Positions 1,934 to 55,876 of a DNA stretch of 64,000 bases are shown piece after piece. How positions within the stretch are numbered: the stretch's first letter is position 1; the number at the start of each line of letters is the position of its first letter. The stretch comes from an uncultured candidate division Zixibacteria bacterium (lineage in GTDB: Bacteria; Zixibacteria; MSB-5A5; GN15; PGXB01). The translations under genes were made by a program, and so were the position numbers. The stretch is from the NCBI GenBank assembly GCA_963702205.1, contig OY969724.1, positions 32,001 to 96,000 on the forward strand, written 5' to 3'. The notes below the pieces were generated by a model. That model ran no database searches, had not been told where the DNA came from, and saw only the letters and a list, made by a program, of their open reading frames with translations.

Positions 1934-3352
1934 TCAAATGCCGATGGAATTCATATCGCTGATCGCCTTTGCAACGATCTTTAATTCTTTATCCTGTATT
2001 GTTCTTACATCAAGAAGGACACTGTCCTGCTCTACCCTAACAATAATGGGAGGGTCGCCGGCCTTCAGAATTTCGTTTATCCGATGGGCTGTCATCTCAC
2101 GCGGATTGAGCCGTAAAAGGCGTGTATGAAGTTCCATCAGAGGCAGGGCGCCCCCGCCCACCTTTGACATGCCATCCACGGTATCAACCCCGAAATTGTT
2201 GCCATCTTTGGCTGTTATCATGCGCAAAATGCGTCGGGCCTTTGCCTTGAGATCTTCATAGGACTGGCAAATCATCCTGAGGGTCGGTATTGTGTCAATG
2301 GCCTTTCGTTCATCCCTGTATATATTCAATGTCTCTTCAAGGGCCAGGAGAGTCAGCTTGTCTATCCTTAATGCCCTGTTAAGCTGGTTCTTTTTTATTT
2401 TTTCAACCGGTGGTTTTTTCCCCAGGATTATACCTGCCTGGGGCCCCCCCAGGAGTTTATCACCGCTGAATGTGACCAGGTCTATACCTGCCTCAAGCAC
2501 CTGCTGGACGGTCGGTTCCCATTCCATTCCATATTTGGAAAAGTCGATAAATGATCCGCTGCCAAGATCTTCAATAACAGGTATGTTGTGTTTTTTTCCG
2601 AGTTCCACGAGGGCGGACCTTTCGACCTCCTCATTGAACCCTACTATCTGGAAATTGCTTTTGTGGACCTTTAATATGGCTGCTGTTTCAGGGGTTATGG
2701 CCTCTTCATAGTCCTTCAGGTGGGTCTTGTTCGTTGTTCCCACTTCGATCATTCTTGCGCCGCTTTTTCTCATAACATCAGGTATCCTGAATGATCCTCC
2801 GATCTCAACCAGTTCACCCCTGGATATTATTACCTCACGGTCTTTTGCCATCGTTTCAAGGGTAATAAGGACGGCAGCAGCATTATTATTTACCACCATG
2901 GCGGCCTCTGCCGAGGTCAACTCCTTTAAAATTCCCTCCACATGGGTATACCTGCTTCCCCGTTTCCCCATTTCAATATCATACTCAAGATTGCTGTAAC
3001 CGCTGCTGATTGCCTTAAATTTATCTATTACACTTTCGGCAAGCAGAGATCTCCCGAGATTGGTGTGGATGACAACACCGGTGGCGTTTATAACATTCCT
3101 GAGACTTGACCTGGAAACGAGCCGGAGCCTCTCAGCGATCATAGCGATGATATTGTTCTGATCCATCGCCATGCCCTCCTTTGTTATCTCTCCCTTTTCA
3201 ATGCCCTTTCTTGTCTCGGACAGGATTTCATTGATTGACCTGAGTATGAGACTTCGAGGATAATTTGCTGAAATGCCTTTTATTTCAGGTGCTTCCAGCA
3301 GGCGGTCTACAGCTGGAATCTTCCTGAATAATTCTGATCTGCTATCTGTCAT
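1934..3352 (-). CDS. selA: L-seryl-tRNA(Sec) selenium transferase
   Basis: VINATGVVIHTNLGRS, NNNAAA, GELVEIGGSFRIPD, and FSGDKLLGGPQAG (PLP lysine). Confidence 0.97.
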   Translation of the reverse strand: MTDSRSELFRKIPAVDRLLEAPEIKGISANYPRSLILRSINEILSETRKGIEKGEITKEGMAMDQNNIIAMIAERLRLVSRSSLRNVINATGVVIHTNLGRSLLAESVIDKFKAISSGYSNLEYDIEMGKRGSRYTHVEGILKELTSAEAAMVVNNNAAAVLITLETMAKDREVIISRGELVEIGGSFRIPDVMRKSGARMIEVGTTNKTHLKDYEEAITPETAAILKVHKSNFQIVGFNEEVERSALVELGKKHNIPVIEDLGSGSFIDFSKYGMEWEPTVQQVLEAGIDLVTFSGDKLLGGPQAGIILGKKPPVEKIKKNQLNRALRIDKLTLLALEETLNIYRDERKAIDTIPTLRMICQSYEDLKAKARRILRMITAKDGNNFGVDTVDGMSKVGGGALPLMELHTRLLRLNPREMTAHRINEILKAGDPPIIVRVEQDSVLLDVRTIQDKELKIVAKAISDMNSIGI

Positions 3353-3438
3353 AATGCCTTGCCCGTTTCCTGTCCCTTAATATTTTCAATCTTTTTGTTG
3401 CAAAATTTTAAAAGCATGGTAAATAGATAACAAAATAT

Positions 3439-3515
3439 GGTGGGTGTAGCTCAGCTGGCAGAGCACTTGGTTGTGGCCCAAGATGCCGCGGGTTCAAGTC
3501 CCGTCACTCACCCCA
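3439..3515 (+). tRNA. tRNA-His (GTG) with G-1 and encoded CCA
   Basis: Acceptor GTGGGTG/CACTCAC, D arm GCTC/GAGC, anticodon arm CTTGG-TTGTGGC-CCAAG, T loop TTCAAGT, 3' CCCA. Confidence 0.97.
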
Positions 3516-5370: not shown

Positions 5371-5399
5371 TTGACATTGTTCACTTGGAAGGGTATATT
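5371..5399 (+). promoter_or_regulatory. Sigma70 promoter of the ars cluster
   Basis: TTGACA-17 bp-TATATT, 33 bp before the arsR ATG. Confidence 0.7.
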
Positions 5400-5432: not shown

Positions 5433-5777
5433 ATGAAAGATTTTATAAAAGTAATGAAGGCATTATCCGATCCAAACAGGGTCAAAATAGTTAAGATGCT
5501 GCAGCATAAAACAATGTGTGTCTGCGAAATAAGAGAAGCCCTTCAGATAGCCCAGCCCAGCGTATCAAAACATCTTAAAATTCTAGAAGACGCCGATCTT
5601 GTGGCCGGCAGGAAGGACGGCCAGTGGGTTGACTATTATCTTACAGACGGGAGCAGGTCGCCATATGTTGCGAGTCTTCTTGGCAATCTGAAACACTGGC
5701 TGGAAAATGAAAAAGAGATCAGGGATATTATAAATAAGATCCCTTCCATCCGCAGAGAAGACGTCTGCTGCAAATGA
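5433..5777 (+). CDS. arsR: ArsR/SmtB-family repressor
   Basis: KALSDPNR, MCVCE, QPSVSKHLKIL HTH, C-terminal CC; heads an acr3-arsC cluster. Confidence 0.9.
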   Translation: MKDFIKVMKALSDPNRVKIVKMLQHKTMCVCEIREALQIAQPSVSKHLKILEDADLVAGRKDGQWVDYYLTDGSRSPYVASLLGNLKHWLENEKEIRDIINKIPSIRREDVCCK

Positions 5778-5839
5778 TTTTTTTTGGCATTTATAAATAG
5801 TCATATTGGAATATATGCATTTAATTAATGGAGATTGTT

Positions 5840-6073
5840 ATGGAAATAAAGATACTGGGACCAGGATGTAAAAAATGCGAATCCACCAGAAGAGCTGTTG
5901 AAGAAGCAGTAGCTGAAAGCGGAATTTCAGCAGAAATTATTAAGGTTACCGATATGCTTGAGATAGCAAAACATGGTGTTTTCGGGACACCGGCTGTTGT
6001 GGTGGATGGAAAGGTAAAAAGCGTGGGGAAAATTCCGACCAAGGGTGAGATCAAGGGTTGGATACAACAATAA
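5840..6073 (+). CDS. Small redox-active disulfide protein (thioredoxin-like)
   Basis: IKILGPGCKKC and GVFGTPAVVVDG; start chosen from GGAG RBS. Confidence 0.9.
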   Translation: MEIKILGPGCKKCESTRRAVEEAVAESGISAEIIKVTDMLEIAKHGVFGTPAVVVDGKVKSVGKIPTKGEIKGWIQQ

Positions 6074-6087
6074 CAAAGGAGGATAAA

Positions 6088-6477
6088 ATGAAGTCTTTAA
6101 TATTGTCATTTATTTTAGCTTTACTTTTAACAACCGGGTTTTCGGTTAATTCATCCGCTTCCGAAGAGCATGAGAACTTTCTCAAAAACCTTCCTGTCAA
6201 GGGAACGGTGACAATGATAGATCTCGGCAAGAAAAACTGTACCCAGTGCAAGATGATGGCCCCCATACTGGAAAAACTTAAATTGCAATACAAAGGAAAG
6301 GTCGAAATTGTCTTTATAAACCTCCTGGATGATCCGGAACAACAATATCGCTTCCGCTTAAAGGCCTTGCCAACTCAGATATTTTTTAACAGGGAAGGAG
6401 AGGAAGTTTACAGGCATATAGGATTCCTGAGTGAAAAGGATATAACTGCCCAGCTTGTTAAAATGGGTGTTGAATAA
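6088..6477 (+). CDS. Exported thioredoxin-family protein
   Basis: Signal peptide, CTQC motif, PTQIFF cis-Pro strand; AGGAGG RBS. Confidence 0.85.
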   Translation: MKSLILSFILALLLTTGFSVNSSASEEHENFLKNLPVKGTVTMIDLGKKNCTQCKMMAPILEKLKLQYKGKVEIVFINLLDDPEQQYRFRLKALPTQIFFNREGEEVYRHIGFLSEKDITAQLVKMGVE

Positions 6478-6503: not shown

Positions 6504-7208
6504 ATGCTGGATTCCTTTTTTATTACTGTCAACGGATGGATATCAAGTGGACCTTTACTTGCGGCCGTCGGCTGTTTTTTATGGGGAGTGATAAGTGTTC
6601 TGTTCAGCCCCTGCCATCTTGCGTCAATACCCCTTATTGTCGGCTATGTCGGGGGGCAGGAGGCGATGCTTACGCCGCGAAAGGCAGGTGTTTACTCTGT
6701 TTTATTTTCAACCGGGCTGTTTATTTCCATAGCCCTTATAGGGATCATCTGTGCCCTTCTGGGGCGGATGCTTGGAGATGTAGGTAATTACTGGCAGATC
6801 TTTATTGGACTTATTCTTATATGGATCGCCCTGGGAATGCTCGGAGTTGAAAAATGTACCGCGTCCGGCAGTCTGCTTTACAAACTGAATTTCAGAGGAT
6901 TTGCCGGTGCATTTGGGCTTGGTCTGGCATACGGCATTCTATCTGGTTCATGCACATTTGGATTTATTGCACCTGTTCTGGCAATCATCACCGTACAAAA
7001 GCAGATCGCATCAGGAATACTTTTTATATTGCTGTTTGCCGTTGGTCATTGCCTGCCTATCGTAGTGGCAGGCAGTTCAACGGCTGCCGTGAAAAGGATC
7101 ATGGAAAACAGCAGGTGGCAGGGAGCAGGTACCTGTTTTAGAAAAGGAGCGGGTGCTATTATCATTTTATTGGGGATCTATTTTATAGTTAATCCTTTTT
7201 TAAAATAA
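6504..7208 (+). CDS. CcdA/DsbD-type membrane electron transporter
   Basis: Hydrophobic multi-TM protein with SPCHL and GSCT Cys motifs. Confidence 0.85.
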   Translation: MLDSFFITVNGWISSGPLLAAVGCFLWGVISVLFSPCHLASIPLIVGYVGGQEAMLTPRKAGVYSVLFSTGLFISIALIGIICALLGRMLGDVGNYWQIFIGLILIWIALGMLGVEKCTASGSLLYKLNFRGFAGAFGLGLAYGILSGSCTFGFIAPVLAIITVQKQIASGILFILLFAVGHCLPIVVAGSSTAAVKRIMENSRWQGAGTCFRKGAGAIIILLGIYFIVNPFLK

Positions 7209-7785: not shown

Positions 7786-8877
7786 ATGAGTGTATCTATA
7801 TCAAAAAAACTCTCTTTCCTGGACAGGTTCCTAACACTCTGGATATTCGCCGCGATGATAACAGGTGTATTTTCCGGGTATTTTTTCCCTAAAGTAAAGG
7901 ATTTTATCAATCTTTTCCAAGTTGGAACAACAAACATCCCTATTGCAATAGGGTTAATTTTAATGATGTACCCTCCCCTTGCAAAGGTAAAATATGAACA
8001 ACTGGGACAGGTATTTAAAAATTTCAAGGTTCTTGCTCTTTCACTGGTACAGAACTGGATCATAGGTCCGATACTCATGTTCCTTCTTGCTATAACATTT
8101 TTATCGGGGCACCAGGAATACATGGTAGGACTTATCCTTATCGGCCTTGCCCGCTGCATTGCAATGGTGATTGTATGGAATGATCTTGCGTCAGGAGACA
8201 CTGAATACTGCGCCGGTCTTGTAGCATTTAATTCAATATTTCAGGTTTTATTCTTTTCTGTTTATGCCTACATATTCATTACTGTTCTTCCCCAGTGGAT
8301 AGGGCTTAAAGGAATGGTGGTTGATATATCCATCGGTCAGATAGCCGAAAGCGTATTTATCTATCTTGGAATACCATTTATAGCAGGTATTATTTCGCGA
8401 GTTATCGGCCTTAATACAAAAGGAAGGGAATGGTACGAAAAAAAATTCATACCAAAGATAAGCCCTCTGACCCTTATTGCCCTGCTCTTTACAATCCTTG
8501 TGATGTTCTCTCTCAAGGGGGAGTATATAGTTCAACTTCCGATGGATGTAGTTCGTGTTGCAATACCTCTCTGTATATATTTTGTGATAATGTTTTTTGC
8601 CTCTTTTTTTCTATCCATGAAGGCAGGGGCATCATATGAACAGTCAGCAACGCTCAGTTTTACAGCAGCGTCAAATAACTTTGAACTCGCGATCGCTGTT
8701 GCGGTAGCAGTTTTCGGAATCAATTCAGGGCAGGCATTTGCCGCGGTGATCGGTCCGCTCGTTGAAGTTCCTGTACTGATAGGGCTTGTTAATGTGGCTT
8801 TATGGTTCAGGAAAAAATATTTTCCATATGCAGTGCAAACACCGACAGGTGTGTGTCATATGACATGTGAGGGGTAA
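7786..8877 (+). CDS. acr3: ACR3-family arsenite efflux pump
   Basis: [42 protein letters not shown]. Confidence 0.96.
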
Positions 8878-8878
8878 A

Positions 8879-9304
8879 ATGAAAAAACAGATACTTTTCC
8901 TATGCACAGGAAACTCATGCCGAAGCCAGATGGCAGAGGGGTGGACCAATTACCTCCAGAAAGAAGACTTTAAGGCATACTCTGCCGGAATCAGTCCAAA
9001 GGGCGTTGACCCAAGGGCTGTAAAGGTAATGTCCGAGGTCGGAGTTGATATATCTGGACAAAATTCAAAGGCTATAGATTCGCTGGGAGATATGGAATTT
9101 GACTATGTAGTTACGCTTTGTGACAATGCAAATGAAGCATGCCCGTTCTTCCCAGCAAAGACCAGACTGCTCCACAGGGGCTTTGATGATCCTCCAAAAC
9201 TCGCCGATAGCATACAGAATGAAGATGAGGCATTAAATCATTACCGAAGGGTGCGGGAAGAGATAAGGGCCTTTGTTGAGAACCTGGAAGAAGAACTCAA
9301 ATAA
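8879..9304 (+). CDS. arsC: Thioredoxin-coupled arsenate reductase (LMW-PTP fold)
   Basis: CTGNSCRSQMAEG, TLC...CP and FDDP motifs. Confidence 0.95.
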   Translation: MKKQILFLCTGNSCRSQMAEGWTNYLQKEDFKAYSAGISPKGVDPRAVKVMSEVGVDISGQNSKAIDSLGDMEFDYVVTLCDNANEACPFFPAKTRLLHRGFDDPPKLADSIQNEDEALNHYRRVREEIRAFVENLEEELK

Positions 9305-9478: not shown

Positions 9479-11924
9479 ATGGCATATAAACGATTGATGA
9501 TATTTTTTTTGTCTGTTTTTTTAACGCCGGCTTATATTAATGCCCAAGTCCCCTCTCAGGCAGAGAAGGATCAGAAGTATGAGGAAGCCAAACAGGACGC
9601 GATGGGGATTTGTCCACCTATCAACCTGCTGGACGAAAATGGAAATATTATCAATCCGTTGGAAAATCCCAACGTAAGCAAGCCTTACAGTCCTAAAATG
9701 ACCTGCGGAAAATGTCATGACTACGACAAGATAACACAGGGTTACCATTTTCAACAGGGTAAAGGTGCTAAGATGACTGAGGATTACGCGCAGGCCTATC
9801 CCTGGGCAAAAAGCCCCGGGCAATACGGGGGTAGATGGTGAAGTCCGGGACCTGTTTTCCGCCAGTTGGCAGGGAAAAAGAACTCATCACCCCAGGAGAT
9901 CGACCTTACATCTTACACCTTTACAGCCCAGTGCAGTGTCTGCCATACCGGAGGCGGCCCTGCAGAATACTGACCGGAACGGAAACCGTTATGATCAGTT
10001 TGCAGCAGACCCGAAAAACGGGATAATTCCAGGCGGGACAAACAACCTTGACGGCGATTATTTCGAGTCAAAGTGGGCTGAAAGCGGGGTCCTTGAGGCT
10101 GACTGTCTCATATGCCACCTTAAAAGCTACGACATGGAAAAAAGAAACGCCCAGGTTAAGGAATTCAATTTTCGCTGGGCCGCTACGGCGGGTGCCGGAT
10201 TTGGAAAAGTAGAAGGCAGTATCTTAAAAGGCGAAACACCGAAGGTCATATATAATCCTTCCATGTTCCAAGAAGGCGGCAAGGTGGTTCTTCCGGTTAT
10301 CAGGGAGGTTCAAAATGGAAACTGCCTTTTTTGTCATCACGGGTCCGACTGGAAGAAACGCGGCAGTTCCTACAGTCACAGGACAGATGTGCATATCCGG
10401 GCCGGGCTGCGTTGCATCGACTGCCATTTGACCGGCCGGCATGCGGAAGATCCCAGGATTTATGGAAGGGAAGAACACCAGATAGGCAAAGGCGATGACC
10501 CGGGAGATTTTGACCGTGATGACCTGGATAATACCATGCGCAGCTGTGAGGACTGTCATGCAAATGGTATTCTAAATGCACCTGTCCCGCAGCATAAGGG
10601 CTTCCCGCCGGTTCATTTTGAAAAGATCGCCTGCCAGACCTGTCATATACCATGGCGCCAGGTGAGGGCCGCTCTCGTGCAGGATTCCTCTGTTTTCAAC
10701 GCGAGCCCCCGAATTGAACCGCCAGGTAAAAGAATCTGGAATTTTTACGGGCCGGATATAACACCATGGAATTATTACGGATTTGAAATTGGTTATCCGG
10801 AAGGGCTACAGCCGTTCTTCAAGTACAGGCCGGCACTTGGAAAGTACAAGGACAAGATCTATCCCCTTAACCGTGTTTATACGCTATGGACAGGGATAAA
10901 AACAAAAGGAGAAAAAGGGATCAACCAGCCATTCATGAAAGATATTTTTATGATGTGGAAAAATCATTCAGAGCATCCGGACACGACCTACCCTGAGTTG
11001 AGTATTATCAGCGATGACAACCGTGACGGGTTTCCTGAAGTTAACAGGCCTGAGGAGATCAAATCTCTACTGTCCTCGGTCACCTCTATGCTCAAACAAA
11101 AAGGGGTATCCATGAAGAATAAGACAGTCGTATTTGTGGACGGGGATCGTTACACAGCCGACGGAAACAAATGGATAAGCCTTCCTAAAAAGCCATATGA
11201 ATATTCTCCTTACGGCTCGGTCTTCAAATATTCCCACGACATCACCCCTGCCCGTAATGCACTGGGTGCCAAAGGGTGCGCCGACTGTCATGCCCTCAAA
11301 TCCACTTTTTTCGAGCAGCCCGTCATGACACAGCCGTTTGATGAAAATGGCAAACCCACCTATCGACCTAATGCTGAACTTCTCGGATTTTCATCAACAG
11401 CGGTATTTGCAAGTGGCTTCAGGCAGGAGATTTTAAAACCGATCCTTTTTTTCAGTATTCTGGCCGGTATATTGCTATTACTTATCATGCTTGTATGCGG
11501 AGATTGGGTAATCGGGCTCTCAAAATCGAAACCTTTTCCTTGGACACCCACCCAACGCCTGATGCTTGGTATCCTGGGTGTGGGTCTTCTTGGACCGTCT
11601 ATTATTGTCATCTTTGAATCACTACTACCCAGTAATGTTATAGGAATACTGGAAAACATCCATCGGTGGGCGGGAGTCGGTCTTGTCATTGCTACCCTCT
11701 GGCTGATGTTAAAAACAAGGGGTAAAAACACCGATAGTCTTTTCTGGACAGGCATTTTTTTAGTGGCATTTATGACATCAACAGGGGTCTTCCTTTGGGT
11801 AAGCAGCTCTGAAAACATACGGCAGATCCTTTATACCCTGCATGATGCCGGTGCCATTTGCGCAGGTTTTATAGCTCTTGTATCAATTATTTACTTTTTT
11901 TTACATAACAGGGCAGCCAAATGA
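9479..11924 (+). CDS. Probable selenocysteine-containing, membrane-anchored octaheme c-type cytochrome (UGA 9839-9841; one extra base near 9971)
   Basis: Signal peptide; frame stays open after the TGA and includes CSVCH; 8 CxxCH in total; SECIS-like hairpin; C-terminal TM helices; selA in window. Confidence 0.8.
9855..9878 (+). promoter_or_regulatory. Candidate bacterial SECIS element
   Basis: TTTTCC-GCC-[AGTT]-GGC-AG-GGAAAA; GU-containing apical loop begins 22 nt after the UGA. Confidence 0.65.
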
Positions 11925-12028: not shown

Positions 12029-13141
12029 ATGAAAACGCTTGAACAAGACAAGGGCTCCTTCACAGCTCTCAACAAAGAATCGACAAGCCGGACAACGATC
12101 GTGAGCCATGCCGGCGTGACCGCCAAATACATTGCGCTCATCGTGCTGCTGCTGGCGGCGTGGTGGGTTATTTACCGGAACCTTCCGGCTTTTGCAGAAC
12201 ACGCAACGCGCATCATGTCAACACTGATGGGCTTTCAGGTCGACGGAAGACTGGGCGGCGTCGTTTCGTTTTTCATCTTCGAAGCGCCCAAAGTGCTGAT
12301 GCTGCTGGTCCTGGTGGTCTTCGGAGTTGGCATCGTTCGATCCTTTTTCACTCCCGAACGGACAAGAAACATTCTCGCCGGCCGACGTGAATCAATCGGC
12401 AACGTACTGGCGTCGATCCTCGGCATCGTGACCCCCTTCTGCTCCTGTTCAGCGGTGCCGCTTTTTCTGGGATTTGTGACTACGGGTGTTCCTCTTGGAG
12501 TGACATTCTCCTTCCTTATTGCTGCACCCATGGTCAACGAAGTGGCGCTGGTGCTTCTCTATGGGCTATTCGGCTGGGAGGTGGCGGCCATCTACCTGGG
12601 TATGGGTGTGTTGATCGCTATGGTCGCTGGATGGGTCATCGGCCGGCTGCACATGGAGCGGCATCTCGAAGAGTGGGTATTCCAGATCCAGGCGGGGCAG
12701 GCAGACCTGCCTGAAGGAAAGCAGAATTGGGCGGACCGGATGCGCTATGGATGGGATGCGGTTCGCGAAATCGTGGGAAAGGTCTGGATATATGTGATAT
12801 TGGGCATCGCTGTTGGTGCAGGCATCCACGGCTACGTGCCCGAAGGTGTTATGGCTTCGTTCATGGGAAAGTCCGCATGGTGGTCGGTGCCCCTGTCCGT
12901 GGTGATCGGCATTCCCATGTACTCCAACGCCGCTGGAATCATTCCCATCGTGCACGCCCTGATTGAGAAGGGGGCGGCGCTTGGCACGGTACTGGCGTTC
13001 ATGATGTCCGTCATCGCACTGTCGTTTCCCGAGATGGTCATACTGCGCAAGGTCCTCAAGCCGCGGTTGATCGCCACTTTTATTGGAGTGGTCGGAGCGG
13101 GCATCCTTTTGGTTGGATATCTGTTCAATTTTATTATGTAG
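12029..13141 (+). CDS. ArsP/DUF318-family permease
   Basis: TPFCSCS, APMVNE, GIPMYSN, ALSFPE motifs; lies in ars cluster. Confidence 0.88.
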   Translation: MKTLEQDKGSFTALNKESTSRTTIVSHAGVTAKYIALIVLLLAAWWVIYRNLPAFAEHATRIMSTLMGFQVDGRLGGVVSFFIFEAPKVLMLLVLVVFGVGIVRSFFTPERTRNILAGRRESIGNVLASILGIVTPFCSCSAVPLFLGFVTTGVPLGVTFSFLIAAPMVNEVALVLLYGLFGWEVAAIYLGMGVLIAMVAGWVIGRLHMERHLEEWVFQIQAGQADLPEGKQNWADRMRYGWDAVREIVGKVWIYVILGIAVGAGIHGYVPEGVMASFMGKSAWWSVPLSVVIGIPMYSNAAGIIPIVHALIEKGAALGTVLAFMMSVIALSFPEMVILRKVLKPRLIATFIGVVGAGILLVGYLFNFIM

Positions 13142-13227: not shown

Positions 13228-13887
13228 TTGGAAACTGATTTAATCATTGAAATAGAACAGGTCTTGAAACCATTTTTTACTCATGCGCGATTTAAGACAC
13301 AAGAGTTTTTATGGCATGAGGGTGATCCGGGCAGTAAAATGATCTCGATAATCAAGGGAAAGGTCAGAATTTACCGTTCTCTCCCGGATGGAAAGCAGGC
13401 ATCAATATTCTTATTTGGTCCGGGAGAAACATTTGGTTTTTTACCTTTGATTGACAGATCACCATATCCAGCCAGTGCAGAAGTCATAGAAGATCTTGAA
13501 GCTCTGGTCATGACAAGGGAAAAACTGTATGAAGTGATGAGGCAGTATCCTGATGTTGCCGTGTTTTTACTTACACAACTGGCCAAAAAACTGCGCGGAG
13601 CGTTTGACCAGATTGAAATGCTTTCTACCCGGGGTATCCTGCCCCGTGTGGCTGCGGCTATTATCTCACTCACCAGTTCGTCCGATAGTAAAGTGCAAAC
13701 TGAAATAATAACACTTCCTGTCTCTTCACGTGAATATGCAGGTCTTTTAGGGCTTACGCCCGAAAGTTTTTCAAGGGGAATCACGAAACTTTCGGAAATG
13801 GGTATCATTCACAAGATAAAGGGAAATACATTCCAGGTACTTGACTATAACAGGCTGCTCAGCGAATCCAGACCGGAAAATCAGTAA
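13228..13887 (+). CDS. Crp/Fnr-family transcriptional regulator
   Basis: cNMP-binding-like domain (GPGETFG) and HTH GLTPESFSR; TTG start; no N-terminal Cys cluster. Confidence 0.9.
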   Translation: METDLIIEIEQVLKPFFTHARFKTQEFLWHEGDPGSKMISIIKGKVRIYRSLPDGKQASIFLFGPGETFGFLPLIDRSPYPASAEVIEDLEALVMTREKLYEVMRQYPDVAVFLLTQLAKKLRGAFDQIEMLSTRGILPRVAAAIISLTSSSDSKVQTEIITLPVSSREYAGLLGLTPESFSRGITKLSEMGIIHKIKGNTFQVLDYNRLLSESRPENQ

Positions 13888-13897
13888 AAGCTGACCA

Positions 13898-14043
13898 GTG
13901 TCCATCCGGAAAGATACAATTTCAGGACAGAGCTTACAGCAGTCAGCGTTCAGCGTTCAGCCAAGTCTTTAATTTTAATGCTTTAAGCTGATAGCTGAAG
14001 GCTGATGGCTTTCATCAAAAAACAAAGGTTTCCGGATAAACAC
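13898..14043. repeat. MITE-like element with internal inverted heptamer repeats
   Basis: Terminal IR GTGTCCATCCGGAAA / TTTCCGGATAAACAC (13/15); inside TCAGCGT repeats versus GCTGATA/GCTGAAG/GCTGATG. Confidence 0.6.
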
Positions 14044-14089
14044 CAATATTCTAAAATAGTTCAAACATTCTCTACTAAAGCACCCAAAA

Positions 14090-14103
14090 TTGATCGCGAT
14101 CAA
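14090..14103 (+). promoter_or_regulatory. FNR-type binding site
   Basis: TTGAT-CGCG-ATCAA is a perfect FNR consensus, 55 bp before the FmdE-family ATG, next to a Crp/Fnr gene. Confidence 0.8.
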
Positions 14104-14158
14104 TGCCTAATCCTTCATGGTGTTTTATATTTAAAGAAAAAATACAAAGGAGACAATC

Positions 14159-14767
14159 ATGGAAAATTTTAAAGAAATACTTGAAACGGGTATTAAATTT
14201 CACGGTCACAGGTGCCCGGCCATGCCAATGGGGCTCAAGGCAGGGCTCGCCGCTATGAAGATCCTTGGCGTGGAACGCGCAAAAGACAAGGAACTCTCAG
14301 TGATATCCGAAACAGGTAAAGGGCATGCAGCAGGCTGCTTTCTGGACGGCATCATGACAGCTACCGGATGCACATATGGCAAGTCGAATATCGAAAAACG
14401 TTATTACAACAAGATGGCCTTTACTCTAATTGATAATAAAACCGGTCGTGCAGTTCGGGTTTCCCTGAAACCCGACTTTTTTGAAATGGCACTCGCATCC
14501 CCCTTTGTACAACTGAGAAAGGCCGGCACTCCGCCGCAGGACATTGATCCCGAAATAGCCGATCCGCTCATTAACAGGGTCCTGGGGCTGGAAGACTCTC
14601 AGTTCCTCGATATCGGAGATATACACCCTGTTGATGTTAAAAAAGGGAAGGGAGTTTTCGATGCAAAAAGGTGTGAAGCCTGCGGCGAACTTACCTTTAT
14701 AAACAAGCTGCGTGTAAAGGATGACGGGTCCCTCCTGTGCATCCCATGCTCGGGCTATGACGAGTAA
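14159..14767 (+). CDS. FmdE-family metal-binding protein
   Basis: FHGHRCP, CFLDG, GCTYGK and C-terminal zinc finger CEAC...CIPC. Confidence 0.88.
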
Positions 14768-14801
14768 TCAATCTTAATGAAACAGAAGGGGGGAACAGTT
14801 A

Positions 14802-15611
14802 ATGCCTATAGGAACCGAACAGATTATATTATTGTGCGCCGTCTTTTTCATCGTGTCAGTCGTATTTATGATGTTCGGCCAGGGAGGCGGTGCAGTCTAT
14901 GTGCCCATGCTCCTGGCCTTCGGGCTTCCTCTTTATACGTGTGCCGCTACAAGCCAGATGCTGATTATAGTAGCCACCGTCTCCGCCCTTCTTGTTTTCC
15001 ATAAGGCCGGATTCGTTGACTGGACCCTTGCCCTTATCGTGGAGCCGCCAACCAACCTTGGAGCCTTTTTCGGGGGATACCTTTCGCCTTATTTTCCTGT
15101 GACATTTTCCAAGCTTGCATTTGCCTGTATTATCCTTATCGGAGCTTACTTCATGATAAAGCCCATAGGAAACAGGAGGATGGGACCGGAAGTTAAAAAG
15201 GACAGATGGTTTTATATTAATCGAACCACTGGAAATGAATCATATACATTAAATCTTTTTTCCATAATACCGCTGATGATCCTTGCAGGCTTTGTGTCGG
15301 GTATGCTGGGTGTGGGTGGTGGCCTCATAAAGGTGCCTGTAATGGTACTCCTGGTGGGTGTCCCAATGAAGATAGCCGTAGGTTCATCAAGCCTGATGAT
15401 TGGTATTACAGCGATTACAGGCCTTCTAGGTCATGTAATAGCCGGGCATTTTGACCCGAAACTGGCCATGATCCTCGGAGGCGCAGTCCTGGTCGGCTCT
15501 CAGATTGGTGCAAGGCTGGGTGTCAGAATAGACAAGAAAGGTCATAAAAAATATTTTGGTATCCTGTTAATCTTTATCGCCTGCTGGATGGGCTATATGG
15601 CGTTTAAATAA
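14802..15611 (+). CDS. TauE/SafE-family (TSUP) exporter
   Basis: Duplicated G(Q/V)GGG..VP motifs, hydrophobic, GSQIGAR. Confidence 0.88.
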   Translation: MPIGTEQIILLCAVFFIVSVVFMMFGQGGGAVYVPMLLAFGLPLYTCAATSQMLIIVATVSALLVFHKAGFVDWTLALIVEPPTNLGAFFGGYLSPYFPVTFSKLAFACIILIGAYFMIKPIGNRRMGPEVKKDRWFYINRTTGNESYTLNLFSIIPLMILAGFVSGMLGVGGGLIKVPVMVLLVGVPMKIAVGSSSLMIGITAITGLLGHVIAGHFDPKLAMILGGAVLVGSQIGARLGVRIDKKGHKKYFGILLIFIACWMGYMAFK

Positions 15612-15721
15612 AACACATATGGCAGAGTATGAACAAAACAGAAAGCTGATCAGGATAAACAGCTTAATCTGCGATCCGTGACAGGTATTTCCACTGCCAA
15701 TAACCCTCAAGGAGTTTTGAG

Positions 15722-16996
15722 ATGAAGCGTCATTTTATTTTTATGGTTTTATGTGCATTCTGGAGTTCAAACTGCTTTGCCGTCAGTATCGATGATCTTC
15801 TGGATGCTGCAGCGCAGCAACCGGGTTATGAAGTCAGCGCTCTGGCCGTCCAGGAAAGCGATTTGCAAAAAGATCGCGCCACAGCCGCCTTGTTTCCGGA
15901 ACTCGGAGCCTTTAGTCGTTTCGAAAACTACAATTCGCCGACCAATCTTCGCCCAATGCCCCCTACAGAGGTCAATATACAGGCGGGAGAGTCGATTCCC
16001 TTTTCCCGTAATATCATCCGCTATGGGTTGAGCTTTGAGGCTCCTGTGTATGTCCGAAAGCTATATGTGCTGCGACAAAAAGCGATTCTGCTGCGGCAAA
16101 AGGCCGAAACCGATCGGCAATTGGACCTGATCGGTCGTCAGGCGACGGTGGTATCGCTTAACAGTGCTTTGGCTTATCTGCAGGCTCTCGAAGCAGCGAT
16201 CGATGCCCGCCGCGCGTCTCTCGGCAAAACACTTGAGGATATGTCCCTAAAGGTGAAAACCGGGAGATCCCCTGAATCAGAGCTTTTGAAAATTCAAAAG
16301 ACGATCAATGATCTGGATCAACAGCGCAATGAACTGGAGGTGAAACGTCTGGAAACGCTGCGGGAGATCAATACCCTGACAGGCATTAAAGTTTCTGCGG
16401 CGGCCGACATGAGCCTTATTCAACAGCCGATGGGGACCTCCTACCTGGCGGTTACTGCGGCCCAATACAATGCCGATGTCGCTGAAAAGGAAGTTGAGCA
16501 CACGCAGGCAGCCCGTTGGCCGGAGTTGTCTGTTAATGGTTATGTTTCCGGCAATGACGGAGAAGCGTACAACACAGACAGTCATATTTACAGGAGCTAT
16601 AACCAGATCGCCCTGGTTCTGAAGTTTCCCTTGTTCAACCGTACCCTGAAGAGCGACGAATCCATTGCCCGGGTTCAACTGGAGAAAGCGAAAAAATATC
16701 TGGAACAAACACGGCTCGACATGGAAGCGCTTTCCGAAACGCTGGCACAGAAAATCGTGGTCATCGAAAAATCCATCACACTGGCCGAAAATTCGATCAC
16801 TGACAGTGAAAAGCTACTGGCCGTCGCCCGTGTCTCGTTGCGCTCCGGGCGCATGACCACTGAGGATTATCTGCGCTATGAAAGTGATGTTCTGGCCGCT
16901 CAGGCAGCCCTTTGCCAGGCACGTCAGCAAAGGTGGCAGATAGTTGCTCAGCAGGCTGTGCTTTATGGAACAGATTTGAAAGGAGTCGTAAAATGA
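15722..16996 (+). CDS. TolC-family outer-membrane efflux protein
   Basis: Signal peptide, two helical repeats (FPEL/WPEL), precedes MFP and RND genes. Confidence 0.85.
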   Translation: MKRHFIFMVLCAFWSSNCFAVSIDDLLDAAAQQPGYEVSALAVQESDLQKDRATAALFPELGAFSRFENYNSPTNLRPMPPTEVNIQAGESIPFSRNIIRYGLSFEAPVYVRKLYVLRQKAILLRQKAETDRQLDLIGRQATVVSLNSALAYLQALEAAIDARRASLGKTLEDMSLKVKTGRSPESELLKIQKTINDLDQQRNELEVKRLETLREINTLTGIKVSAAADMSLIQQPMGTSYLAVTAAQYNADVAEKEVEHTQAARWPELSVNGYVSGNDGEAYNTDSHIYRSYNQIALVLKFPLFNRTLKSDESIARVQLEKAKKYLEQTRLDMEALSETLAQKIVVIEKSITLAENSITDSEKLLAVARVSLRSGRMTTEDYLRYESDVLAAQAALCQARQQRWQIVAQQAVLYGTDLKGVVK

Positions 16997-18048
16997 AAAA
17001 ACGCATTTTCACTATTTTAATTATTATACTTGTCGCTGCTGCCGGTCTGATGCTGCTACACAAAAGAAAAATCGACCTTTCCAAGGCGTCTCCGGCCCAG
17101 ATCCTGCCGGCGGTTGTTAAGACTATAGATATCAAGTCACAACCAGTCACCCTGACACTGCCGGCCATGGGCGTGGTTGCCTCAGACGTTTCTTCGGTGC
17201 TTTCCACCCGGATCAGCGGTCGAATTACCAAAATAATGAAGCGGGAAGGAGAAACTGTTCATGAGGGAGAATTGATCGCCCTGATCGATAATGCTGATCT
17301 TGAAGCCAAACGAAAATCATTACTGGCAAAACAGGAAGGAGTGAAAGCGGAAATCGAGGCCCTGCGGCAGGCTCATCAGCGTACCCTTGAACTGCTTAAA
17401 GTCGGAGGGGCGTCACTTGAGCAGAAACAGCAGGAAGAGGCTTCCATAGAACGCCTGGTCCGGGAACGGGAAAGCTTGATACAAAACGGGCAGGAGATCG
17501 AAGTATTATCCAGCTACGCCCGCATCGTCGCTCCGGTTTTCGGCACGCTGAGTCAGGTCCTGGTAAGCCCCGGTGATCTGGCTACTCCCGGCAAGCCTTT
17601 GTTTCGGATCGCATCAAAAAACGGTCTTTATCTGCAGCTTTCCCTGCCAGGTTCTGTTCATGCCTCAGAAATCATACTGCAGGGACATACCTTGCCCCTG
17701 ACCTCCAGGGAGCAGACCGCGAACACCGGACTGGTGCAGTATGTGGCTCCACTACCTCCAAGCACCGGGATGGTTGAGGGTGAGTACATAAATGTGAAGG
17801 TAGTCGTTTATCAAGGCAATGGCATGTTTATGCCTGTTGACGCCCTTCTGACCATGGATGGTTCTTCTTCGGTTTTTGTTCTGTCTCTCGACGGCAAGGC
17901 CGAACGTATACCCGTCACGATCAAAGCGCGCGGTGTTGAGGGCGTGACGGTCGAACAAAACCTGTCCGGCCGAAGGATAATCGTGGCCAAGCCTGATATC
18001 CTCTTACGGATCGCTGCGGGCGTCCCCGTGATAGCAATGAATTCCTAA
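16993..18048 (+). CDS. RND efflux periplasmic adaptor (MFP)
   Basis: N-terminal anchor, ISGRI...EGETV lipoyl half, coiled coil, IVAPVFG; AGGAG RBS. Confidence 0.88.
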   Translation: MKKRIFTILIIILVAAAGLMLLHKRKIDLSKASPAQILPAVVKTIDIKSQPVTLTLPAMGVVASDVSSVLSTRISGRITKIMKREGETVHEGELIALIDNADLEAKRKSLLAKQEGVKAEIEALRQAHQRTLELLKVGGASLEQKQQEEASIERLVRERESLIQNGQEIEVLSSYARIVAPVFGTLSQVLVSPGDLATPGKPLFRIASKNGLYLQLSLPGSVHASEIILQGHTLPLTSREQTANTGLVQYVAPLPPSTGMVEGEYINVKVVVYQGNGMFMPVDALLTMDGSSSVFVLSLDGKAERIPVTIKARGVEGVTVEQNLSGRRIIVAKPDILLRIAAGVPVIAMNS

Positions 18049-18059
18049 GGAGGCCAGTT

Positions 18060-21000
18060 ATGTTTGATTTTTTCCATAAGCGTCCCTACCTGCTATATAG
18101 CCTGATCGCCGGATTTTTCGTGCTGGGAGTTTACGGCCTGCTGGTGATGCCAAAGAATCTTTTTCCGGACAGCGACCGGCCGACGATCATCGTAGTGACT
18201 CAGGTCCCCGGCGCGACACCCGACGTGGTGGCTGCCACGGTTTCCAAGCCCATCGAGGAGGAAGTCTCCACCCTGTCGCAGATCCGACAGGTCAGTTCAG
18301 TTAATATTGCCGGCATGTCTATAGTCACGGCCGAGTTTGAGTACATCAAGGGGCTGGATCCGGCTGCTGTTGATGTCAACAACGCTATTAACAAAATGCG
18401 CGGCAAACTGCCCCGGGACGTCAATCCATCCATCTACACGGCCGGCTCACACATTCTGCCGGTAGATGTGTTCGCGCTGTCACCGGCCGGTGGTGGTCTT
18501 ACCCTGGGCGACGTACGCAAGATCGCAGAAAGCGATATCAAACCCGCTCTTCTGCGAAACCCTCAAGTTGGCAATGTGGAGATCTTCGGTGGATACCAAA
18601 GCGCCATCAGTATAAATGTCGATCCGTTCAGGGCAAAAGCAGCAGGATTGAGTCTGGATAAGATCTCAACGACGGTGCGCGCCCTGGACCGGGACGCCCC
18701 ATCGGATTCAGCAAGAATATGGATTCTTTTTATACGATCACCATTTATGGAGAAAAAGCAAGTGTCGAAGAACTAAGCATGCTGCCAGTGGCTCCCAACG
18801 TTCGCCTTGGCGATATAGCTGATATCAGGTGGGAGCACCAGACGCGCTTTTCCGGTTACTACGGCGACGGGAAGGCTGCCATCGCTATAGCGATCCAGCG
18901 TGCACCGGGCGGATCGGTACTGGACACAAGCAATGCCTGCCGCGCGGTTGTCGAAAATCTCAAACCACGCTATCCCAACATCCGCTTCGCACTCGCCGAC
19001 ACCCAGCGCACCCTGATCAAAACAGCCAACATCAATATGCTTGACGCGCTACGGGACGCCATTATTTTCACCCTTATTGTCATCCTCCTTTTTTTGGGCA
19101 ATCTGCGGGCTGTCGCCGCAGCCCTGATCTCTATTCCCATGGTGTTTTTTACTACTCTGGCCATCATCTGGATGACCGGCGGTGAGTTGAACATAGTCAT
19201 CTACACGGCCATCATCCTCGCCTTGGGAATGCTTGTGGATGACGCGGTCGTCGTCCTGGAAAACATCGAGCGCCATCTGGTGGATTTGAAGCAGGATCTG
19301 AATACGGCCATTATCTCCGGCACCAAGGAAGTGGTAGCGCCGGTTTTCGCCGGCACAGTGGCAACCGTGGCCATCATGTTCCCTTTCCTGTTTGCCGGTG
19401 ATTTTCCCCAGCAAATCTTCCGGCCTCTGATCTCCACGCTGATCATAGCCCTGGTGGTTTCCTATTTTCTTTCCATTACCTTCATTCCCGCCATCTCCTT
19501 TTTCCTTTACCGCAAGGGTGTTTCCAAGACTCGCTTCGAGCAGCTACTCGAGTATCTCTACGAGAAAAGCTTCGGACGCCTGGTAGGACCTTATCTGGCC
19601 ATCCTGCGGTTTTCCGCCAGGGGGCGCTCCGGCTGGCGGCGCATCCTGATGACCGTCGCTGTTGTCGCACTGCTGGCCTTCAGCCTCAAAAACATCATGC
19701 CGGTAATCGGCCGTGACCTGATGCCCCCCATGGATACAGGCATCATCAAGGCCCATGTCAAGTTTTCCGCCAACGAGCCGGTGGACGTAGCAGAAAAGCG
19801 TCTCAAACCCTTTATCGAATGGCTTCACCGACAGCCGGAAGTGGTCATGAGTTCAGTGAGTTACGGTTCCGAGCCAGGCGTGCTTTCCCTGGGATCGGGG
19901 TCACTGCCCGCAGAAGCGATGATGACGATTAATTGCGTGGATCGCTTCCACCGCAAAAAAAGTATATGGCAGATTGAGGATGAACTTCGTTCGCGTCTTT
20001 CGGAATTGCGAAACGTCAAGGCTGCCGACGTATATGACTTCGGCGCCACCCCACTGTCCAGTATCAAAGCCCCCGTCGACGTGCGCCTGATGGCTGAAGA
20101 CTACCATGTATTGCCGCAAGCGGCGCAAAAAGCCGCGAAGGCTCTCGGCTCGGTCAAGGGGTTGACTTCTGTAAACACCAGCTGGGACAATGATTTCACT
20201 GAGGCGCGGTTGAATGTCGACACCAACCGTGCCCTGGCATATGGCATGACCCCGGTGCAGATCGCCGCCCAGTTACCTCTGGCAGGTCTTCCTGTAGCAG
20301 TCAGCGCTAATATGGTCACTATGCAGAATCAGTTTGTGCGAATTTATTTTAACCGACCATTTGACGGCAACCCGGAACAGTTGCGCCTGATCCCGATACA
20401 GACGCCCAAGGGACCTGTGCCGCTTTCTGCCCTGGCGACAATAGAATACGGACTGACAGCCAACAAGATCGAGCGTAACCAGATGCTCTATTCCCTGGAC
20501 GTGTCGGGATATCGCTCCCGGCGTGCCATTTCCACCCTGACTGAAGACACCCAGTCAGCCCTGAAAAAGGCCGGCATCAAAGGTGTGAAAATCAGCCAGG
20601 AAGGTGATATCAAGCAGATGAAGGACTCTTTCACGCGGATGATCAAGTCTATCGGCATTGGCGTAATACTTCTGCTCATGGCGCTGGTGGCCATTTATCA
20701 GTCAGTGCGTATGGCTATCGTCATGGTCCTGGTGCTCCCGCTTGCAATGATCGGGGCTTCCTGGGGCATGCTTATCTTCAATAAACCAAGCTGCATGCCC
20801 AGCCTGGTAGGTATTTTGCTGCTCTTTGGCATCATCATCAAGAATTCGATTCTGCTGATCGATTTTTATCAGGAGTTTAGAAAAAAAGAAGAATCCCCCT
20901 TTGATGCGGCCCTGGAGAGTGTGAGGGTGCGATTCCGGCCGGTGTTCATGACCGCTTTTGGCACTATCGCCGGCATGATTCCCATCGCTTTCGAATGGGC

Positions 21001-21145
21001 GGTCGGGCTCGAAAGGCTCTCACCCCTGGCCGATGTGGCAGTGGGCGGGCTCCTGGTCGGAACGGTGCTGACATTGATATACATCCCAATGTTCGCCTAC
21101 AGCGTGGAAGGGAAAAAATCGATTCAAACCGGCAATTTAAAATGA
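18060..21145 (+). CDS. RND (AcrB/CusA-type) efflux permease, frameshifted near 18695-18700
   Basis: Two ORFs join as ...DAP-IGFSKNMDS with one missing C in a C run; LVDDAVVVLENI and RFRPVFMT motifs. Confidence 0.88.
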
Positions 21146-21165
21146 TAATGTCAAATGAAATTTAA

Positions 21166-22551
21166 ATGTCTGGATATATCACCCGTATGATACATGGAAT
21201 TGGAAAAAGGCTTTTTATCTCAGGGCTGGTTTTTATTATTTTAGGTGTTATGGTGGTAACCGTAAAGGCAGGAGAGATTTCTTTTGATGGAGAGATCCGG
21301 GAACGATTCGAGACCCTGGATGGAATGAATAAAAAGACCTATGGTGATCATTCCATTGACGCAAAGGGAAATGTCAAAGGCGGCCCGGATGACCGGCTCC
21401 TGCTGCAGCGTATTATCGCGGGATTTACCTACAGGCAAAATGAGCACATCACCTATCATCTGCATATGTATGATGCACGGGTCCGGGGATGGTCTCTTGA
21501 CGAAGATAATTTTATAAAGAACAAAGGGACACCTGATGAATATACCATGGATCCAGATGAAGAATATTTTGAACTCCACGACGCCAACATAGAGATCAAC
21601 GACCTTTTCATCAATGGGCTCTCAACGCAACTGGGTCGACAGAAAATATGGTACGGTGACAAACGTATCTTCGGTCCCGGAGGTTGGGGAAACTCCATCG
21701 GCTGGCTCTGGGATGCGGTGCACTTTTCCTATAAGAAAAATGGCAATTTCATCGATGCATGGTACGGGCAGACAAAGACAAAAGATCCCTGTTCCTTCAG
21801 CCTCCTTGAAAAGCATGCGTACCAGGGTATAGGCTTTTATTCCCATTTCAGGACCATAAAACACGGCGCGATTGAACCGTTTTTCGCCTGGAAAAATAAT
21901 CTGTTTCATAGTGTTACGCCGGAAGAAAAAACATATTACTTTGGGGCAAGATTCTATGAAAAGGACTACAATAATCTCAACTGGGATATAACATATGCTG
22001 GCGAGAGAGGGGACATCGGGAATAAGACTGTTCGGGCCTATGGTTATATTGCCAAGGTGGGATATCTTTTCAGAAACATTCCCATGAGGCCGAATATAGT
22101 CCTCGGACGTGTCTTTGCCAGCGGTGACAGCAACACCACCGATAATACCATCAGGACATTTACAACGCCGTTCGGCTCCACCGACGGCGAGCATTACGGG
22201 CGAATGGATATCATGTCCTGGTCCAACCTGGTAGACAACCAGATTAATCTCTACGTTGACCCGACTGAAAAAAATCATATCAAGCTGTCCTGCCATAATT
22301 TCTTTCTGGATGAACCGGAGGACACATGGAGTTACTATAAATACAGGAACCTGCCGGGAAACAGTTATACACATCTGGGAAAGGAATTCGACTTTCAGTA
22401 CAGGTATGATTACTCCCGTGCTCTGAGCTTTCAGGTGAGTTACGCATATTTTGATGCCGGTGACTTTGTGACGAACAATGTGGAGGACAACGACACGCAT
22501 CGTTTATTTCTCCAATGTACATATCGCTTCCATTTTCCCTTGAGTAAATAA
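21166..22551 (+). CDS. Alginate-export-family outer-membrane porin
   Basis: GEIRERFE, LGRQ..YGD.R, ASGD motifs; beta-barrel-like C-terminus. Confidence 0.75.
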   Translation: MSGYITRMIHGIGKRLFISGLVFIILGVMVVTVKAGEISFDGEIRERFETLDGMNKKTYGDHSIDAKGNVKGGPDDRLLLQRIIAGFTYRQNEHITYHLHMYDARVRGWSLDEDNFIKNKGTPDEYTMDPDEEYFELHDANIEINDLFINGLSTQLGRQKIWYGDKRIFGPGGWGNSIGWLWDAVHFSYKKNGNFIDAWYGQTKTKDPCSFSLLEKHAYQGIGFYSHFRTIKHGAIEPFFAWKNNLFHSVTPEEKTYYFGARFYEKDYNNLNWDITYAGERGDIGNKTVRAYGYIAKVGYLFRNIPMRPNIVLGRVFASGDSNTTDNTIRTFTTPFGSTDGEHYGRMDIMSWSNLVDNQINLYVDPTEKNHIKLSCHNFFLDEPEDTWSYYKYRNLPGNSYTHLGKEFDFQYRYDYSRALSFQVSYAYFDAGDFVTNNVEDNDTHRLFLQCTYRFHFPLSK

Positions 22552-55823: not shown

Positions 55824-55860
55824 GATATCGGAAAATTTGCCCACTACTCCTATGTTAAAT
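55824..55860 (+). other. Putative attI site (core G/TTAAAT at 55854)
   Basis: First GTT box of the array, not preceded by an attC; complements GCATTTAAC at 56925-56933. Confidence 0.7.
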
Positions 55861-55876
55861 GCTCAAGGAGCAAAAA

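Follow-up and report, generated by a model that had tools for sequence, protein, structure and literature searches.

How can one coding sequence be recognized where an in-frame TGA and a change of frame appear to divide a cytochrome gene in two? This question is raised by positions 9479–11924 of a 64,000-nt stretch (hereafter the window) of contig OY969724.1 (assembly GCA_963702205.1), the genome of an uncultured candidate division Zixibacteria bacterium. An initial annotation, made from the letters of the window alone, had proposed that this locus hides a selenocysteine (Sec) codon in a membrane-anchored cytochrome with eight CxxCH heme motifs. Our analysis indicated that 9479–11924 is probably a single gene, the 814-residue product of which would be an octaheme c-type cytochrome that is exported and anchored in the membrane, with UGA read as Sec. 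Judged by its sequence, it is a genuine but mis-called selenoprotein gene, which would combine a new multiheme architecture with an ordinary mechanism of Sec insertion. The features discussed below are collected in Table 1.

A cytochrome gene called as two reading frames

Open reading frame (ORF) calling with translation table 11 afforded a 120-aa ORF at 9479–9841, which ends with PGQYGGRW-TGA, and a 662-aa ORF at 9936–11924. When TGA was translated as U, the first frame continued for 43 further codons (SPGPVFRQ...CSVCHTGGGPAEY) and took in a CxxCH motif at 9932–9946 that is held by no table-11 ORF. The ending of the short ORF and the additional heme motif had both been pointed out in the initial annotation, and both were seen here. 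That annotation had also treated 9479–11924 as a single frame, by which a frameshift at 9970 was overlooked. The span measures 2446 nt, which is not a multiple of three; the 662-aa ORF lies in the +1 frame relative to the 120-aa ORF (9479 mod 3 = 2, 9936 mod 3 = 0); and beyond the read-through the first frame meets a second TGA at 9971–9973 and then dissolves into stops. Read-through alone thus fails to give the joined product of about 814 aa that had been foreseen, and base 9970 has to be removed to obtain it; the length is then 814 aa and the product contains eight CxxCH motifs, two from the first frame and six from the second. The N-terminus bears a hydrophobic signal-like segment and the C-terminus about five hydrophobic segments with His residues in ENIHRW and TLHDAG, in agreement with the proposed signal peptide, the eight heme motifs and the His-bearing transmembrane (TM) helices (IHRW and LHDA).

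Table 1. Features of the cytochrome locus and its surroundings (window positions).
Feature	Position	Strand	Evidence or remark
selA (selenocysteine synthase), one of two copies	1934–3352	−	TIGR00474 621.9 bits (cut-off 267.9); PF03841, PF12390
Best sigma-70-like promoter match before the arsR-led row	5371–5399	+	TTGACA-17-TATATT, 11/12; consensus match only
arsR-family regulator	5433–5777	+	PF01022 60.8 bits
Thioredoxin_3 protein, CxxC GPGCKKC, ArsE type	5828–6073	+	PF13192 102.2 bits; naming follows a preprint on ND132 (bioRxiv 10.1101/2022.10.17.512643)
Exported thioredoxin	6058–6477	+	PF00085
CcdA/DsbD-type membrane thiol-disulfide transporter	6504–7208	+	PF02683
ACR3 arsenite efflux pump	7786–8877	+	TIGR00832 463.8 bits, above cut-off; PF01758
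Thioredoxin-type arsenate reductase ArsC	8867–9304	+	TIGR02691 143.1 bits, below cut-off 174.3; PF01451
Cytochrome, first part	9479–9838	+	signal-like N-terminus, heme motif 1 CGKCH 9704–9718, conserved His90; 55–63% identity to homologues of ~816 aa
UGA as predicted Sec, residue 121, W-U-S-P	9839–9841	+	Cys/TGA column in homologues
Same-frame continuation, heme motif 2 CSVCH 9932–9946	9842–9969	+	read-through translation
SECIS-type hairpin	9855–9877	+	9-bp interrupted stem, loop AGUU, bulged A 9871
One extra base, GAATA[C]TGAC	9970	+	shifts the frame; probably an assembly error
Rest of the cytochrome, +1 frame	9972–11924	+	heme motifs 3–8 at 10104, 10323, 10413, 10545, 10632, 11277; conserved distal-His candidates
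C-terminal membrane domain, reduced cytochrome b561/FdnI-like	11382–11921	+	hhalign match to long-form tails
ArsP_1-type permease, CSC motif	12029–13141	+	PF03773 253.1 bits; SaoE 134.5 and SO_0444 97.4 bits, both below cut-offs
Crp/Fnr regulator, FmdE, TauE, OEP-HlyD-AcrB efflux pump, Alginate_exp porin	13228–22551	+	families also flank Sec-type relatives; AcrB frameshift at ~18719–18776

The TGA codon at a cysteine column of the family

A search with the read-through N-terminus returned 89 homologues, mostly of 810–930 aa with eight CxxCH motifs. The motif PGxYGGxW was found by regular expression in 85 of them, the four most distant homologues being without it, and the column that follows was occupied by Cys in 84, by Ser in one (P0068) and by Trp in none. 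A pattern scan of genomes taken one per species gave at least 599 matches; 572 of them were confirmed as relatives, and 80 were retained for comparison. The motif was present in 75 of the 80 kept loci, with TGC (33), TGT (32) or TGA (10) as the next codon; this share of TGA is a lower bound, since one of the two peptide patterns of the scan requires a Cys codon. All ten TGA loci lie in metagenome-assembled genomes (MAGs) labelled Deltaproteobacteria, Desulfobacteraceae, Desulfonema, Desulfococcus or Desulfohalobiaceae. A DNA pattern laid across the TGA, which detects only Y-G-G-(R/S)-W-TGA-AGY-CC forms, matched 44 metagenome stretches, and 24 of these were family members whose frame is open through the next heme motif. 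Altogether, an in-frame TGA was found at this column in 34 relatives from Desulfobacterota MAGs and metagenomes. At least 17 of the Sec-type relatives are complete, with 814–936 aa, a single TGA and 7–8 CxxCH motifs. In a FastTree phylogeny of 64 rows, the 13 Sec rows formed one clade without exception (SH-like support 99), and the second ORF of the cytochrome was placed inside it, beside the loci L024 and L121 (support 98).

The TGA at 9839–9841 was unchanged in contigs of three independent metagenome runs (X1, X2, and X3). A general recoding of TGA was considered and rejected, as this triplet terminates 8 of the 35 long ORFs in the window.

The genome was found to contain the Sec machinery, namely selB (344.6 bits), selD (392.5 bits), a tRNA-SeC with the anticodon tca, and two selA genes. 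The selA copy in the window (622 bits) stands alone and adjoins a tRNA-His gene (genome positions 35440–35515), and the second copy (476 bits) is located directly upstream of selB (genome C1:2218894–2222107, plus strand). The selD gene (genome C1:3782531–3783454, minus strand) holds one in-frame TGA, which implies that in this organism the Sec system itself depends on Sec.

Taken together, the Cys/TGA column, the Sec-type clade, a hairpin that is limited to TGA-bearing genes (see below), and the full Sec machinery strongly support the Sec reading, and the TGA at 9839–9841 is almost certainly a selenocysteine codon. The hidden selenoprotein of the initial annotation has thereby gained strong support. 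Several of the checks named with it turned out in its favor as well: the homologous column holds Cys, with a single Ser and no Trp, independent metagenome contigs carry the TGA, and selB, selD and tRNA-SeC are all in the genome. The selA gene noticed in the window was confirmed on the minus strand.

A hairpin downstream of the TGA codon

A hairpin with a GU loop had been noted at the distance expected for a SECIS (selenocysteine insertion sequence), and such a hairpin was present, with a stem formed by 9855–9863 and 9868–9877 and the loop at 9864–9867. The G of the loop lies 26 nt from the U of UGA; the range of bSECISearch for the distance of the apical loop from UGA is about 16–37 nt. To compare it with its relatives, 29 distinct Sec-type sequences, each comprising the TGA and 54 nt, were folded individually. 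A helix of columns 19–25 with 31–37, closed by the loop AGUUG, had pairs in 87.2% of cells, compared with 49–66% for slid registers, and only 1 of 500 shuffles matched the observed pairing. GUU was present in the apical loop of 28 of the 29 Sec-type genes. The mean minimum free energy (MFE) of a 30-nt window was −9.0 kcal/mol in Sec-type (n = 29) and −2.2 kcal/mol in Cys-type sequences (n = 64), a contrast that overstates independence in that the Sec-type rows are kin. This kinship is one of several points that weigh against the hairpin as a functional element. Covariation was modest, only two pairs having changes in both partners; for the ungapped alignment of the 29 sequences, no consensus pair was returned by RNAalifold; the hairpin of the cytochrome gene itself is, like that of locus L125, a shifted variant (CCGCC-AGUU-GGC(A)GG), the register and bulge of which are unlike those of most relatives; and its own 62-nt fold was no better than shuffles (z = 0.15). 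A search of 9700–10050 against Rfam (E ≤ 10) returned only noise. The significance of the hairpin thus comes from the comparison with relatives, its own fold energy being no better than that of shuffled sequences. A natural variant, G9874A, was observed in two salt-marsh metagenome runs; it is synonymous and, within the SECIS stem, replaces a G-U pair by A-U. In the standard bacterial route, SelB would bind the hairpin at 9855–9877 and deliver Sec-tRNA(Sec) at the UGA of codon 121.

The break of frame at position 9970

In homologues, CHPGGGxxE[YF]-DRxGxRYD runs in a single frame; here, ...PAEY belongs to the first frame and DRNGNRYD is read in the second. When the DNA was aligned with that of nine Sec-type relatives, exactly one extra base appeared, which is missing in all nine. 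In BLASTP comparisons, residue 164 of the read-through product corresponded to residue 169 of L024, and residue 13 of the second ORF to residue 170, so that the junction is seamless. Of 33 Sec-type loci extending this far, 31 stay in frame. L128 jumps here to a distant part of the gene, and L026 (a Desulfonema limicola MAG; 3232–3452) shows a one-base loss of its own in a G run just past heme motif 2, which represents either another assembly indel or an independent inactivation. A 151-nt contig from run X2 covers 9916–10067 with no mismatches and omits one letter, at 9970; the metagenome contigs cover only parts of the cytochrome gene, with 10710–11460 uncovered. The copy retains all eight heme motifs and the seven conserved His residues described below, and its second part is 69% identical to the intact relative L024 over 647 residues.

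Comparable breaks were found elsewhere in this single-contig genome. The main dnaE gene (genome C1:1482493–1485532) is cut at 1483599/1483601, with model positions 1–372 and 373–1022 in different frames, and this break looks like a one-base loss. Within the window, four genes are split between frames: AcrB (18060–18776 and 18719–21145), a radical-SAM/SPASM gene (30219–30683 and 30676–31491), an AAA_14/DUF4143 gene (34420–34857 and 34869–35879), and prfC (51184–51975 and 51995–52774). The gyrB gene, suspected from motif positions to be broken as well, proved to be intact. The genome has a “contamination” score of 7.69%, which may reflect split marker genes, and the breaks suggest roughly one single-base indel per 10–15 kb of the one-contig assembly. 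In view of the X2 contig that omits the base and of dnaE and the four window genes that are likewise split, base 9970 is very likely an insertion error of the assembly.

An octaheme cytochrome family and its hosts

Pfam recognized only generic multiheme domains in the cytochrome. TIGR04315 and TIGR04314 scored 29–43 bits (cut-off 375) and 28–40 bits (cut-off 250), respectively, on its own parts and three intact relatives, and NF040886 (ExtKL; cut-off 250 bits) gave no match at E ≤ 0.01 on its own parts or three intact Sec-type relatives. A search with NF040886 across this genome and a further 151 from the phylum also found nothing, a result that says little, as the controls of this search were silent too. 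Profile searches of the PDB gave weak local matches to NrfA (6v0a, E 0.0019) and OcwA (6i5b, E 0.0048) and no close solved relative. The family is represented by 502 sequences at E ≤ 1e-30 among 50%-identity clusters and by at least 572 loci in the one-per-species genomes, whose labels include Bacteroidota, Ignavibacteriota, Acidobacteriota, Nitrospirota, Planctomycetota, Verrucomicrobiota, KSB1, and Latescibacterota. The cytochrome shares its hallmarks, i.e., eight CxxCH in conserved order, PGxYGGxW[C/U]SP, the conserved His set, and the C-terminal TM domain. On these comparisons, the predicted protein is a member of an uncharacterised family of octaheme cytochromes of ~816 aa that has no Pfam or NCBIfam model of its own. 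No description of this family came out of our literature searches for a Sec octaheme cytochrome or for a cytochrome in ars operons, which covered neither Haft and Tolstoy (2025) nor the family table of BSepDB, either of which could list it.

An alignment of 63 sequences contained seven invariant or nearly invariant His residues outside the heme motifs (L024 positions 95, 310, 338, 377, 384, 501, and 591). Seven such residues for eight hemes leave one heme without a conserved His partner, and this heme is probably a catalytic or unusually ligated center. Sec121, which is Cys in most relatives, would probably be placed at that heme as nucleophile or ligand.

Many family members may be incompletely annotated. 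Thirty of the 150 best family representatives, which were not individually checked, start (residue ≤ 5) at profile positions 128–164, just past the column of Sec or Cys. Such starts would be expected if gene calling resumed behind a TGA in many further lineages. One ESM Atlas cluster, made up of 168 “fragments” of the signal-less ~660-aa kind, has Thermodesulfobacteriota as its commonest lineage. As for the present host, its housekeeping protein Tex shares 84–88% identity with proteins that carry the labels Desulfobacteraceae, Desulfatiglans, and Thermodesulfobacteriota. In a sample of 284 other genomes of the class, 29 harbor a homologue of the cytochrome, all of them without stops and about 46–55% identical. 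The Sec-type gene was probably acquired together with its island.

The C-terminal membrane tail

Two forms of the C-terminal tail were distinguished in the family. For the long form, found in proteins of 881–936 aa, PF01292 gave a score of 75 bits and TIGR01583, the model of the formate dehydrogenase gamma subunit, one of 114.5 bits (cut-off 115.85), and long-form relatives thus end in a domain of the FdnI/HydC-type cytochrome b. The cytochrome studied here has the short form, which scored 14.4 bits on PF01292 (E 0.032), below the cut-off of 30.1. Aligned with the long-form tail by hhalign (probability 98.7%, E 1.9e-16), it is about 65 residues shorter and keeps two of approximately 4–5 His residues; those in ENIHRW and TLHDAG align to two His columns of the long form. 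In Cys-type short forms, the first TM His is conserved in 48 of 50 and the second is not conserved, which counts against the functional reading. By homology, the tail is predicted to be a reduced FdnI-like cytochrome b that retains two His residues, and a link to the quinone pool is plausible; this domain would probably carry electrons between the heme chain and the menaquinone pool. The quinone coupling suggested in the initial annotation has in this way found indirect support in the relationship of the tail to PF01292/FdnI-like tails. Geobacter CbcL, a fusion of a multiheme c-type cytochrome with a cytochrome b, presumably offers a parallel.

Gene neighborhood

The cytochrome gene is located in a same-strand row led by arsR, between arsC and the gene of the ArsP_1-type permease (Table 1), and no convincing terminator-like site was found between these three genes. 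The row also includes an Fe-S protein.

The flanks of 14 Sec-type loci (43 ORFs) contained AcrB and Alginate_exp in four loci each, FmdE, TauE, ACR3, rhodanese, and DsbD in two each, and LMWP ArsC, PF13192, and Porin_O_P in one each. Rhodanese, porin, and TauE genes lie beside the Sec-type relatives L108, L026, and L104. On the Cys side, 23 of 65 genome loci were picked and 21 were scanned (65 ORFs). Their partners were ArsP_1 (9), DGC (6), ArsR and F420_oxidored (4 each), DsbD and thioredoxin (3 each), and FmdE, TauE, Alginate_exp, AcrB, Porin_O_P, and ZIP (2 each), mostly in tight same-strand arrays. The cytochrome family is thus flanked by the same partner families as make up ars operons of the ArsR-ArsP-ArsE(PF13192)-DGC type. 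An ArsR-ArsP-PF13192-DGC operon is reported to be arsenic-induced in Pseudodesulfovibrio mercurii ND132 and, unlike the loci studied here, has no cytochrome as described (bioRxiv 10.1101/2022.10.17.512643). We found no literature that links a multiheme cytochrome to such operons.

Two other regions of the window were noted. A tyrosine-recombinase (phage integrase family) gene at 54282–55232 (minus strand) is followed at 55859–63075 by ~7 kb of ORFs without Pfam match, and 54282–63075 may be a mobile element unrelated to the cytochrome. On the minus strand at 24935–30007, a protein of 1689 aa matches PPDK_N and PEP-utilizers at its C-terminal end only, its first ~960 residues being without Pfam match.

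Comparison with known multiheme enzymes

The initial annotation had named ExtKL as an example of a Sec-containing multiheme cytochrome, a fair analogy, though not a case of the same family, given that NF040886 does not match. MccSep (ExtKL) of Geobacter is a soluble tetramer of pentaheme subunits that reduces polysulfide and selenite, with Sec325 beside a His/Cys-ligated heme (PMC13510729). MccSep (GSU2937-2936 in Geobacter sulfurreducens; NF040886) and the cytochrome have much in common: both are periplasmic multiheme c-type proteins with one UGA-encoded Sec and are annotated as two ORFs, Sec and Cys alternate in both families, a SECIS-like hairpin lies just past the UGA, and both are found in Desulfobacterota hosts, with rhodanese and porin genes near some loci. 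They differ in that MccSep has five hemes, a mass of ~49 kDa, a soluble form, and its Sec (D-G-U-P) in a C-terminal Ig-like domain, whereas the present protein has eight hemes and 814 aa, is membrane-anchored, and carries its Sec (W-U-S-P) between heme motifs 1 and 2. By analogy, the cytochrome may act like MccSep and bring a selenol close to a heme on the periplasmic side.

The octaheme tetrathionate reductase family of TIGR04315 likewise has eight CxxCH motifs, and weak local similarity to it and to NrfA/OcwA-type enzymes extends over hemes 3–6; one heme without a conserved distal His would be a further likeness to catalytic multiheme enzymes. However, the TIGR04315 scores are far below the cut-off, and the present cytochrome is ~370 residues longer and has a membrane domain. 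A table in a 2026 review lists ExtKL, a GSU2204-family protein, and a TIGR04315 octaheme cytochrome with a GenBank annotation as selenoproteins (PMC13188914); by score, none of these three fits the cytochrome family.

Alternative explanations

If the TGA were an ordinary stop or a nonsense mutation, the locus would give rise to two separate products, a monoheme protein of 120 aa and a heptaheme one, or would be a dead gene. Such a view accords with the two ORFs of table-11 calling, with the normal use of TGA as a stop elsewhere in the window, and with a hairpin energy that is unremarkable by itself. However, it leaves unexplained why TGA stands at the Cys column in 34 relatives with the frame open across it, why a conserved heme motif is encoded between the ORFs, and why the hairpin is specific to TGA forms, and the second ORF alone would be without a signal peptide; we consider this view highly improbable. 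A true selenoprotein gene by descent could also have become a pseudogene recently, in which case base 9970 would be real and the product truncated after heme 2. Several observations tell against an intact gene here: the base is present in the assembly and lies outside a homopolymer, and the sole contradicting read evidence is a metagenome contig with a depth of 2.8, which does not stem from the assembly's own reads and possibly represents another strain. Moreover, all three genomes of the same genus lack a homologue and no other TGA form was seen in the 284 sampled genomes of the class, which suggests that the gene was probably acquired and could be dispensable. On the other side, no further lesion was found in a copy whose heme motifs and conserved His residues are complete and which is still 69% identical to intact relatives, dnaE shows a similar 1-nt shift, four more genes are split within 64 kb, and the “contamination” score would fit split marker genes. 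Recent decay is thus unlikely in our judgment. The zero-frame UGA placed directly at the slip point would suit a programmed +1 frameshift at UAC-UGA-C, similar to that of prfB, but the frame is kept here in 31 of 33 Sec-type relatives and in every Cys-type homologue, the base is missing from an otherwise identical contig, tRNA-Tyr on UAC cannot re-pair on ACU by the codon-anticodon rules, and the upstream GGAGG is located at 13 nt, whereas the spacing is 3 nt in prfB; the chance of such a shift is negligible.

With one Sec-encoding gene as the preferred reading, its function can be approached through its surroundings. The position in an arsR-led row and the recurrence of the family in such operons across many phyla suggest a quinol-linked periplasmic oxidoreductase that would act on metalloid or chalcogen species. 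The word “metalloid” is a reasoned guess, since the ArsP_1 family also includes Cu/Zn exporters and SaoE (bioRxiv 10.1101/2022.07.06.499078). Two further findings count against it: Zn/Cu-type transporters (ZIP and CDF) near Cys-type genes make the assignment soft, and no ArsP_1 neighbor was seen in the 14 scanned Sec-type relatives. Arsenic species would be the most likely substrate, a choice that we make tentatively, and polysulfide, selenite, or tellurite would rank after them. The latter substrates would fit a respiratory or detoxifying reductase, a membrane-bound analogue of MccSep for which the ars genes are mere island neighbors. MccSep, in which a Sec beside a heme reduces polysulfide and selenite, sits together with rhodanese (ExtH) and porin (ExtI) (PMC13510729; PMC5877670), genes for rhodanese, porin, and TauE flank three Sec-type relatives, and Tex places the host lineage in Thermodesulfobacteriota. 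Yet ArsR, ArsP_1, PF13192, or DGC accompany Cys-type genes of many phyla in tight same-strand operons, the present gene stands behind arsR between arsC and the ArsP-like permease, and there is no sequence relation to MccSep, so that we regard such a chalcogen reductase as possible, though rather unlikely. A more specific proposal, in which Sec121 would bind substrate at, or ligate, the heme without a conserved distal His, and in which the family would supply the periplasmic, quinol-linked redox enzyme that anaerobic ars operons are missing, appears doubtful at present. If it were true, a heme- and selenol-based transformer of arsenicals (e.g., methylarsenite or thioarsenic species) would exist across more than eight phyla, and if Sec were a heme ligand, this would be the first natural selenolate-ligated heme.

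Implications

MccSep, published in 2026, is the only characterised case of Sec next to a heme. The cytochrome would hold out the prospect of the same chemistry in a larger architecture that is unrelated to MccSep and in which eight hemes are fused to a cytochrome-b-like anchor. Gene callers cut Sec-type genes of this family in two or keep a signal-less fragment of ~660 aa, from which it follows that current counts of selenoproteins and of multiheme proteins in bacteria of the sulfate-reducer type are too low. Furthermore, an assembly that has one-base indels even in dnaE implies that its “pseudogenes” need checking. The Cys form of the family is widespread and unnamed, and its recurrence in ArsR/ArsP/thioredoxin/DGC operons suggests that anaerobic metalloid resistance includes a redox step so far unrecognised, which the natural pair of Sec and Cys enzymes makes directly testable.

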